This document shows, one piece after another, positions 13,381 to 15,118 of a DNA stretch of 64,000 bases (its first letter is position 1; each line of letters opens with the position of its first letter). The DNA comes from Octopus vulgaris (lineage: Eukaryota). A program made the translations under genes and the position numbers. Under the pieces are notes generated by a model. That model saw only the letters and a program-made list of their open reading frames with translations, ran no database searches and was not told where the DNA came from. The DNA is taken from assembly GCA_951406725.2 (NCBI GenBank), contig OX597824.1, positions 56,606,001-56,670,000 on the forward strand, read 5' to 3'.

Positions 13381-13681
13381 TCACAGGAGAGAAATGCGTC
13401 CACATGGATGATGGTGCACTTGCTCCATCATGTTTATATATATATATTGAGCACTCATTCTCATTGTCCAACATTTATATATATCTATAAAAACACACAC
13501 ACTCCTGTGTACATATCTTCCTGTGAGACATCTGTAGGAGAAGCATCAGCTAAAAACAAATCATTGTACTTGGCATTTGTTGACGTGGAGAAAGCCTTCA
13601 ACAGAGTCCCTTGTTATGTTATCTGGAGAAGTTAGGAGTAAATGAATGCCTTGTTAGAGCTTGTCAGGTGATGTATAAGGG

Positions 13682-14152
13682 TAGTAAAGATTGTTTGCCA
13701 ACATAACATGACAGTCCTGGTTTAGGACAAATGTTATAATTTAGCCCCAGGAGAATCGTTTCCAGCTGGCTGAATGACACAATCCGTGTCCTTATATTTT
13801 CAAACAAGGGAATCTAGCACCCCCATTCATCTCAAAACAATATCTCTGTTTCAAGATTTCCAGGTTATTTCCCTTCATCAGCACAGAATAATTGTTCTGA
13901 TGAAGGGAAATAACATGGAAATCACCATACACAAATATTGTTTTGAGTTGAGTGGGGGTGCTAGATTACCTTGTTCAAAAATATAAGGACACAGATCGTG
14001 ACGTATAGCCAGTTGGAGACGATTCTCCTGGGGCTAAATTATGGCAACATTCGTCCTAAACCAGGACTGCCATGTTATGTTGGCAAACAATCTTTACTAC
14101 AAAGTACTGTTGCTGAACATCTCTCGTGAGATTTAAAAATAGTAATTTTCTA
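13682..14152 (+). mobile_element. Fold-back retrozyme-like element, copy 1
   Basis: 11-bp TSD ATGTATAAGGG (13671-13681, 14153-14163); about 205-bp inverted arms centred at 13889; CTGATGA core at 13897; homologous to 18461-18808. Confidence 0.75.
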
Positions 14153-15118
14153 ATGTATAAGGGTGCTGTCAATAGGGCAACAGTCAGCCATGAATACAGT
14201 GATGCATTTAATGTACAAGTTGTAGTTCTCAAGGGCTTGGTTCTTAGTCTCCTCTTATTCATCATAGTCCTCCAGGTTATAACAGAGGAATTTAAGACTA
14301 GTTGATCATGGAAATTATTATATGCTTAAGATCTTACTCTTATAGTGGAATGTGTAGCAGAATTGGAAAAGAAATTCCAGGTTTGGAAGCAAAACTTGGA
14401 ATCAAAGGGCCTTAGTTAACCTAGCAAAGACCAAAATTGTTGTTAGCAAGAAAGCAGGTAAGTCTCTCTTTCTGTCAGATAAATGGCCCTGTTCACTATG
14501 TAGGAAAGGTGCTGTAAGGAATTCCATTCAATGCACCCAGTGCAAGCTATGGATGCATAAGAGGTGCAATGGGATCGTGAGTAGAATAATACAGAAAGTA
14601 ATCTTTGTATGTGGTTGATGTATAGAAACAATAAACCCTAAGGACACATAGTAATTAGATTTTTTTTAATGCTCAGGAGGCTCTCTAGAGATTGTAGATA
14701 ATGTCTGTTACTTAGGGGACCAAATTAGCAATGAAGGAGGATGTTCTGAAAATATAGTTGCTAGAATAAGAATAGGATGGAGAAAGTTTTGAGAGCTATT
14801 ACCTCTGTTGGCAGCAAAAGGCCTCTCCCTTAGAGTGAAAGGCAGACTCTATGAAGCTTCTGTATGAACAGCTATACTCCATGGTGGCAGGACATGGGCC
14901 CTGAATGCATATGTTGTGTGTAAACTGGAGAGGAATGAAGCTAGCATTCTCTTAGGGATGTGCAACATCAGTGTGCATGTACAACAATGTCCAAATACAT
15001 CAGAAGGGGAACTAGGTATAAGAGAGATCAGATGTAGTATGCAAGAGAGAAGACGATTGTTTGGTCATGTGATGTGTATAAATGAGGACAGGTGTATAAC
15101 GAAGTAATGATTGCTTAA

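Follow-up and report, generated by a model that had tools for sequence, protein, structure and literature searches.

A 471-nt insert with a long inverted arm interrupts an RTE-type reverse transcriptase (RT) fragment in the 64-kb stretch of octopus DNA analyzed here (hereafter, the window), and raises the question of what template and what enzyme produced it. An earlier note on this DNA described the insert as a circular permutation of a related element located at 18.4 kb, and proposed a circular or tandem-multimer RNA template and target-primed integration as opposed to cut-and-paste transposition.

The insert and its repeat family

The insert is bracketed by the direct repeat ATGTATAAGGG, which, as claimed in that note, is an 11-bp duplication and occurs exactly twice in the window; the target-site duplication (TSD) spans 11-12 bp, one extra base being ambiguous (Table 1). 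Excision of the insert together with one repeat yields an uninterrupted RTE reverse-transcriptase stretch that aligns across the insertion site with a second RTE copy in the window (38/64 aa, 59%, E 2e-17). The predicted restoration of the host frame thus holds locally; outside the insertion site, the host copy contains stops and frameshifts. The inverted arm, put at about 205 bp, was confirmed as well, with 178 of 203 columns identical (88%). No open frame of 120 aa is present over the insert. On the monomer map, the insert consists of two sense copies facing outward, so that the right arm, originally taken to be the element, is one of two. Judging from the mutations in their motifs, the hammerheads of both arms are likely inactive. 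RTE elements are abundant in the window, and a near-perfect 80-nt palindrome at 13340-13420, at the 5' end of an RTE fragment of opposite orientation, may represent an inversion at the 5' junction of a LINE.

Table 1. Features of the insert and of the 18.4-kb element (window positions). S1 and S2 are the two preferred 3' ends; A and B are the segments before and after the hammerhead in the 18.4-kb copy.
Feature	Position	Strand	Match to consensus
Decayed RTE-type LINE reverse-transcriptase fragment, host of the insertion	13549..14296	+	
Left TSD, 11 bp (12 with the ambiguous base)	13671..13681	+	
Left arm, minus-strand sense copy, monomer 1-219, ends at S1, no tail	13682..13897	-	198/219, script-built subfamily consensus
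Type I hammerhead remnant, left arm; intact core, mutated stem III palindrome, cleavage triplet and stem I	13843..13887	-	
Right arm, sense copy, monomer 17-273, CTGATGA core to S2	13897..14152	+	241/257
Hammerhead remnant, right arm; stem I 5' strand absent, stem II and palindrome mutated	13897..13935	+	
53-nt tail between both preferred ends, right arm only	14100..14152	+	
Right TSD	14153..14163	+	
Sister subfamily, inverted arm, monomer 170 to ~280-284, ends at S2-type site	18355..18462	-	
Sister subfamily, whole monomer, position 170 round to 169: A, spacer, hammerhead (~18654-18697), B	18458..18808	+	312/351, own consensus
Sister subfamily, extra inverted piece, positions 66-157, 3' side; atypical, without clear TSD	18809..18900	-	

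The family was searched in the 2.8-Gb genome. The right arm yielded 2218 first-look candidates, 40 of which were scored, and the 18.4-kb element yielded 1842; more than 1000 first-look candidates were obtained for each of three subfamilies. Both window subfamilies form head-to-tail tandems of 350-353 nt (at locus L004, 3.1 copies with a period of 350 and 97% matches), and their consensus monomers, built by script, measure 350 and 351 nt, with GC contents of 0.40 and 0.42. Additional subfamilies were met by chance in other loci, so far extending the range of unit lengths, across four subfamilies, to 350-362 nt. Among these is the young subfamily 5 (360 nt, members 94-100% alike; L164:883-1242, loci L160-L209), which encodes a canonical hammerhead, resides mostly inside (TA)n and, except for a segment of the tail, is missing from the reads of a related species.

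The monomer of every subfamily contains a type I hammerhead, the stem III of which is short and palindromic. The motif was recognized by its core and stems, which are conserved column by column; an Rfam scan of the 64-kb window detected no hammerhead at E values up to 1 and returned only chance matches to microRNA hairpins. Subfamilies 1-3 carry an extra mismatched pair between the core and stem II, and subfamily 4 has a U3-A8 core. Given this mismatch or extra base pair, the ribozyme of subfamilies 1-3 may be weak. Co-folding of dimers is predicted to give the expected extended stem III; dimeric hammerhead variants of Penelope-like elements (PLEs) were reportedly described in a 2017 study. 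The monomers of four subfamilies fold into overlapping branched structures that are more stable than those of shuffled sequences (z -3.9 to -8.4, 40 shuffles each); two-sided changes occur at 28 of 66 pairs, a count that lacks a control and is not usable as a test. As far as their sequences go, the units, the hammerhead motif, the non-coding self-paired RNA and a TSD longer than 4 bp all agree with a non-LTR retrozyme. At L121:6156-6891 and L102, additional long inverted repeats and short elements were observed whose hammerhead-like cores differ and which are not related to this family, and the genome seems to hold several further families with such cores.

Fixed 3' ends and the apparent permutation

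Insertion ends in subfamily 1 were surveyed using the central part of the monomer as query, so that 3' ends were not preselected; 30 loci were fetched, and 25 were kept after 5 duplicates were dropped. The outward 3' ends concentrate at two sites about 55 nt apart, S1 (~220; 22 ends at 213-230) and S2 (~275; 14 ends at 268-285), which jointly account for 36 of 43 ends (binomial p 3e-20 under a conservative null), contrary to the freely varying permutation points that had been expected. The 5' ends, in contrast to the fixed 3' ends, scatter along the monomer. In the sister subfamily 2, the homologous ends lie at 224 and ~280, and in the modeled folds of subfamilies 1, 2 and 5, S1 is placed in a hairpin loop.

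The two sites are combined in a characteristic manner. Head-to-head arms were found in 18 of the 25 subfamily 1 loci (11 S1+S2, 2 S1+S1, no S2+S2 and 5 other), and the inverted arm is absent in 7. Junction repeats of at least 7 nt (7-13 nt) flank 10 of the 11 S1+S2 insertions, compared to 3 of 300 mismatched-flank controls; about half of the old subfamily 1 loci have no clear TSD. Fixed terminal inverted repeat (TIR) ends together with a constant TSD length, which the earlier note regarded as evidence against its reading, were found in part: the ends are indeed fixed, but there are no TIRs, and the TSD length varies, at about 7-15 bp. This variability supports target-primed integration rather than cut-and-paste. 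Among the 38 subfamily 5 loci are 25 head-to-head insertions, which combine S1 with S2 in 23 cases and are never S1+S1 or S2+S2; because the query included the tail, one S2 end per locus was preselected, whereas its S1 partner was not. Divergence in this subfamily is 1.6% between the arms of one insertion, 1.5% between monomers in one arm and 3.3% between loci; both arms of an insertion derive from the same sequence variant. The arms are as long as 5.6 monomers (2037 nt), and overlaps of 1-16 nt, as given by BLAST, are present at 21 of 26 central arm junctions. Across the family, the tail measures 46-57 nt.

These anatomical features account for the different segment order in the two window elements. 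The alignment of 13893-14152 with the doubled 18461-18808 monomer runs straight over the B-A junction (154/212 columns, score 166, compared to 107 for the single monomer and 40 for the best of 200 shuffles), and the collinearity expected across that junction therefore passed the comparison, for B and A only (query 58-259). The hammerhead part gives no local alignment because the two elements belong to different subfamilies. Their consensus monomers are 63% alike and collinear end to end; by sequence, the two elements belong to sister subfamilies, neither being a copy of the other, so that a direct circular permutation of the first into the second is not supported. The A-hammerhead-B order of the 18.4-kb copy arises because this copy begins at position 170 and runs for one monomer. 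With the 3' ends fixed at two sites and the 5' ends variable, the order observed depends on where each copy was 5'-truncated. It follows that the apparent permutation reflects different 5' truncation points on a tandem template; by itself, permutation is ordinary for tandem-derived elements.

Routes to two outward-facing arms

In our assessment, it is highly probable that the insert consists of two head-to-head, 5'-truncated copies of a ~350-nt non-coding hammerhead repeat, that is, a non-LTR retrozyme and likely a non-autonomous PLE, made by a Penelope-type RT that likely primed synthesis at both nicks. The one-sided tail between two preferred 3' ends, the 5' truncation, the partial tandems and the inverted arm are all features of non-autonomous PLEs. 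Because the copies end at two fixed points, they were likely inserted by a Penelope-like enzyme rather than from a randomly opened RNA circle. Under this scenario, a genomic tandem would be transcribed into a structured multimer RNA, and a PLE protein (GIY-YIG nuclease and RT, a predicted dimer) would nick both strands of an AT-rich target with a stagger of 7-15 bp. Each 3'-OH would then prime one cDNA on the multimer, the first at S1 (~220, in a small hairpin loop) and the second at S2 (~275); the two cDNAs would stop independently and join via short microhomology, and repair of the staggered nicks would produce the TSD. Against this explanation, the three autonomous PLE families sampled contain no homologous terminal repeat, the tail is longer than the 30-40 bp given for PLEs, one of the three head-to-head pairs found in an autonomous PLE with a 781-aa frame was S2+S2, and the 18.4-kb copy is atypical in having an extra inverted piece at its 3' side.

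The principal competing scenario, which we consider rather unlikely, is rolling-circle copying, in which the RT circles a self-cleaved and ligated monomer and generates a tandem cDNA. With fixed starts, this is a variant of priming by a Penelope-type RT at both nicks; with free starts, it is a true rival. The monomers are highly self-paired, arms extend over several units, and arrays vary much less than the family as a whole, 111 family-shared non-CpG variants being fixed in all covering units of an array, as rolling-circle copying would have it; such uniformity, however, fits a circle and a linear multimer alike. Mussel and axolotl retrozymes do form circles, according to the part of PMC7229834 available to us. 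Free permutation, for its part, is refuted by the two fixed ends. Also arguing against a monomer circle as the sole template are 13 substitutions common to subsets of the monomers within an insertion, of which 3 span both arms; the null mean was 0.8, and none of 2000 simulations gave more than 6. Copying of one monomer circle would leave no such substitutions, although some could have been added by local duplication at a later stage, by gene conversion or by assembly effects. At locus L172 (G000:C3:51539979-51541871), the variants of a 1898-nt arm recur with a period of 3 monomers, as would result from a trimer circle or a duplicated trimer, the former being in favor of rolling-circle copying; at L187, one variant occurs in units 2 and 4 only. 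Of the circular or tandem-multimer RNA template originally proposed, the multimer is supported by the head-to-tail tandems, whereas the circle is unneeded, and the variants shared by subsets of monomers speak against a pure monomer circle.

Transcripts of the unit were also examined in a related species. In three RNA-seq runs of one study (X21-X23; about 6% of each run sampled; 1942, 1619 and 1498 mapped reads), the unit is covered in both orientations, with a depth that follows the DNA copy profile, and the wrap-around joints fit a circle and a tandem equally. These data list no accumulation of read ends at the cleavage site; circles may be masked by the type of library. A>G and T>C changes were found at 71 places in the RNA reads (L004:1288-1700), compared to 11 in a DNA run from another individual of the same species (Fisher p 0.006 relative to C>T plus G>A); these transcripts are likely read-through hairpins subject to A-to-I editing by ADAR.

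Inverted arms could also arise by fold-back self-priming, whereby a single cDNA folds back and copies itself; this route was proposed for Penelope elements (PMC3846280, in the portion at hand) and appears very unlikely here. The junction positions on both arms are nearly equal in some insertions (17/1 in the window, 120/110 at L167, 7/11 at L166), in line with fold-back. Nevertheless, fold-back requires nested arms, and the left arm of the window insert extends 16 nt farther 5' while the right arm has the 53-nt tail. In 11 of the 23 S1+S2 insertions of subfamily 5, the arm without the tail exceeds the length that copying of the tailed arm could have given (for example, 1898 vs 303 nt), and fold-back in the reverse direction is unable to supply the tail. 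Fold-back is therefore contradicted for about half of the insertions and is possible for the rest. LINE insertions typically show 5' inversions and long TSDs of variable length, and with RTE elements common in the window, a SINE-like element mobilized by a LINE such as RTE, with L1-type twin priming on one RNA, would explain the TSDs and the inverted arms. We deem this origin very unlikely as well given that subfamily 1 has no poly(A) or element-borne simple-repeat end, that second priming occurs at a constant and not at a random position, that the 5' end of one arm does not adjoin the 3' start of the other although twin priming predicts abutting arms, and that the hammerhead, tandems and one-sided tail are PLE traits. 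Taken alone, the window copy resembles a MITE or fold-back DNA transposon, with its long inverted repeat and flanking duplication. The probability of such an origin is negligible: it is refuted by arms of tens to 2000 nt, a tail on one side only, the 7 of 25 loci without an inverted arm, the variable TSD and the direct tandems.

Penelope-like elements in the genome and relationship to known retrozymes

The genome contains three autonomous PLE families with C-terminal GIY-YIG domains, which were sampled via two window proteins and the Pfam GIY-YIG profile, and whose flanks were scanned by BLAST and with profiles. No terminal repeat homologous to the retrozyme family was detected in these three families, the flank scans matching only separate retrozyme insertions. 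The PLE with the 781-aa frame, preceded by another long frame (L240-L245), is young, and has a CxxxxCxxC linker, a CCAAT-rich 3' region and (TA)n targets. It contains a hammerhead with a U3-A8 core and stem III as in subfamily 4, along with an optional 38-nt tail, and displays the same two-end anatomy, the other two of its three head-to-head pairs being S1+S2. The similarity between its tail and those of the retrozymes falls short of significance (summed p 0.33; the lowest single p among 4 tests was 0.026), and this PLE is a candidate helper, no more.

Another young, high-copy PLE (L121:1771-4653, L122:2914-5781) has a 955-960-aa frame with an asparagine-rich insert between the RT and GIY-YIG domains and a hammerhead-like motif with a long stem II upstream. 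The window itself contains a PLE at 58300-62015 on the minus strand, which has frames for RT and GIY-YIG and includes a minimal hammerhead-like motif within the 3' repeat; many of its genomic copies stop at one common point before (TA)n, and Pfam gave only weak RT matches for the window PLE proteins. At L131:1084-2962 (G000:C13), the 3' part of a PLE ORF and a CT-rich UTR are fused directly to 1.1 monomers of subfamily 5. We rejected this locus as the pseudo-LTR of a partner PLE because the other PLE copies seen terminate in an unrelated 3' end of their own and none of the other subfamily 5 loci examined had PLE sequence; it is a lone chimera that possibly arose by template switching of a PLE RT, or by insertion plus deletion. 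Among other mobile elements in the window, 51955-56220 comprises two 296-nt repeats that are 99% alike, with gag/pol-like frames, and looks recent; from its motifs, we take it to be a Ty3/Gypsy-type LTR retrotransposon. The frames of 595 aa and 123 aa at 31363-33518 on the minus strand are, again from motifs, presumably hAT-type transposase-like.

The octopus family closely resembles the animal non-LTR retrozymes. These were defined in PMC7229834, which, in the sections available, puts forward circular templates, with PLEs as candidate helpers; the reported units are ~350-390 nt in mussel and 331/353 nt in axolotl (PMC7229834; bioRxiv 10.64898/2026.07.22.740005, both in part). Shared with these are the ~350-nt non-coding tandem units, the type I hammerhead with a short palindromic stem III, a GC content of about 40-42%, extensive self-pairing, a TSD of more than 4 bp and the co-occurrence of PLEs. 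The accessible text of bioRxiv 10.64898/2026.07.22.740005 ties non-LTR retrozymes to PLE pseudo-LTRs in 35 species, with no molluscs among them, and does not mention the tail. Fixed 3' ends, a tail, head-to-head arms and cephalopods are likewise absent from the parts of the animal non-LTR retrozyme papers at hand. According to the same material, circles and self-cleavage were demonstrated in the published retrozymes, whereas the octopus family is known here from sequence, and unlike the published retrozymes, subfamilies 1-3 carry the extra mismatched pair beside the core.

The family also resembles PLEs. As far as the available portions of PMC8557442 and PMC3846280 go, PLE insertions feature partial tandems, an inverted arm, a one-sided tail of 30-40 bp and TSDs of 8-10 bp. 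In PMC11167929, also available in part, two internal RT start sites bound the PLE tail in vitro and both strands are extended; the protein is a predicted dimer, and ribozyme cleavage is unneeded. Dimeric PLE hammerheads and U3-A8 covariation are reported in the consulted part of PMC4209133. Going by these partial sources, the octopus retrozymes share with EN+ PLEs the 5' truncation, the partial tandems, the inverted 5'-truncated arm, the one-sided tail, the two internal starts, variable TSDs of the 8-10 bp type, AT-rich or (TA)n targets and a hammerhead near the 3' end; they differ in having no ORF, a tail of 46-57 nt instead of 30-40 bp, and arms that can both be long multimers. Non-autonomous PLE derivatives in multicopy head-to-tail insertions, as in this family, are represented by Chlamys MRC1 (PMC8557442, in the excerpt available).

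In the literature covered, which includes little from subscription journals, there is no account of this retrozyme family in cephalopods or of S1+S2 pairing in retrozymes. The terms ribozyme, retrozyme and hammerhead do not appear in the available main text of the octopus repeat annotation (PMC13282606), the library of which may name the family otherwise; the retrozyme superfamily is apparently large and unannotated.

The published case for a PLE helper, as presented in the accessible texts, is built on shared hammerheads, co-occurrence and terminal-repeat similarity, with a circular template assumed and the mode of insertion left open. The octopus family adds a PLE-specific footprint, namely, two starts and a one-sided tail, on an ORF-less retrozyme. 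It is this clean footprint, together with the near one-to-one pairing of the ends, that raises the finding somewhat above an ordinary permutation. Subfamily 5, with dozens of short, near-intact insertions whose ends are paired in this way, is a compact substrate for tests of the PLE inverted structure. The insertions may well record a division of labor in which a PLE dimer primes both nicks, with one subunit per fixed RNA site, yielding the arms and the one-sided tail, and may also be anatomical evidence that PLE enzymes move animal retrozymes from multimer RNAs, the ribozyme and the circle not being required.
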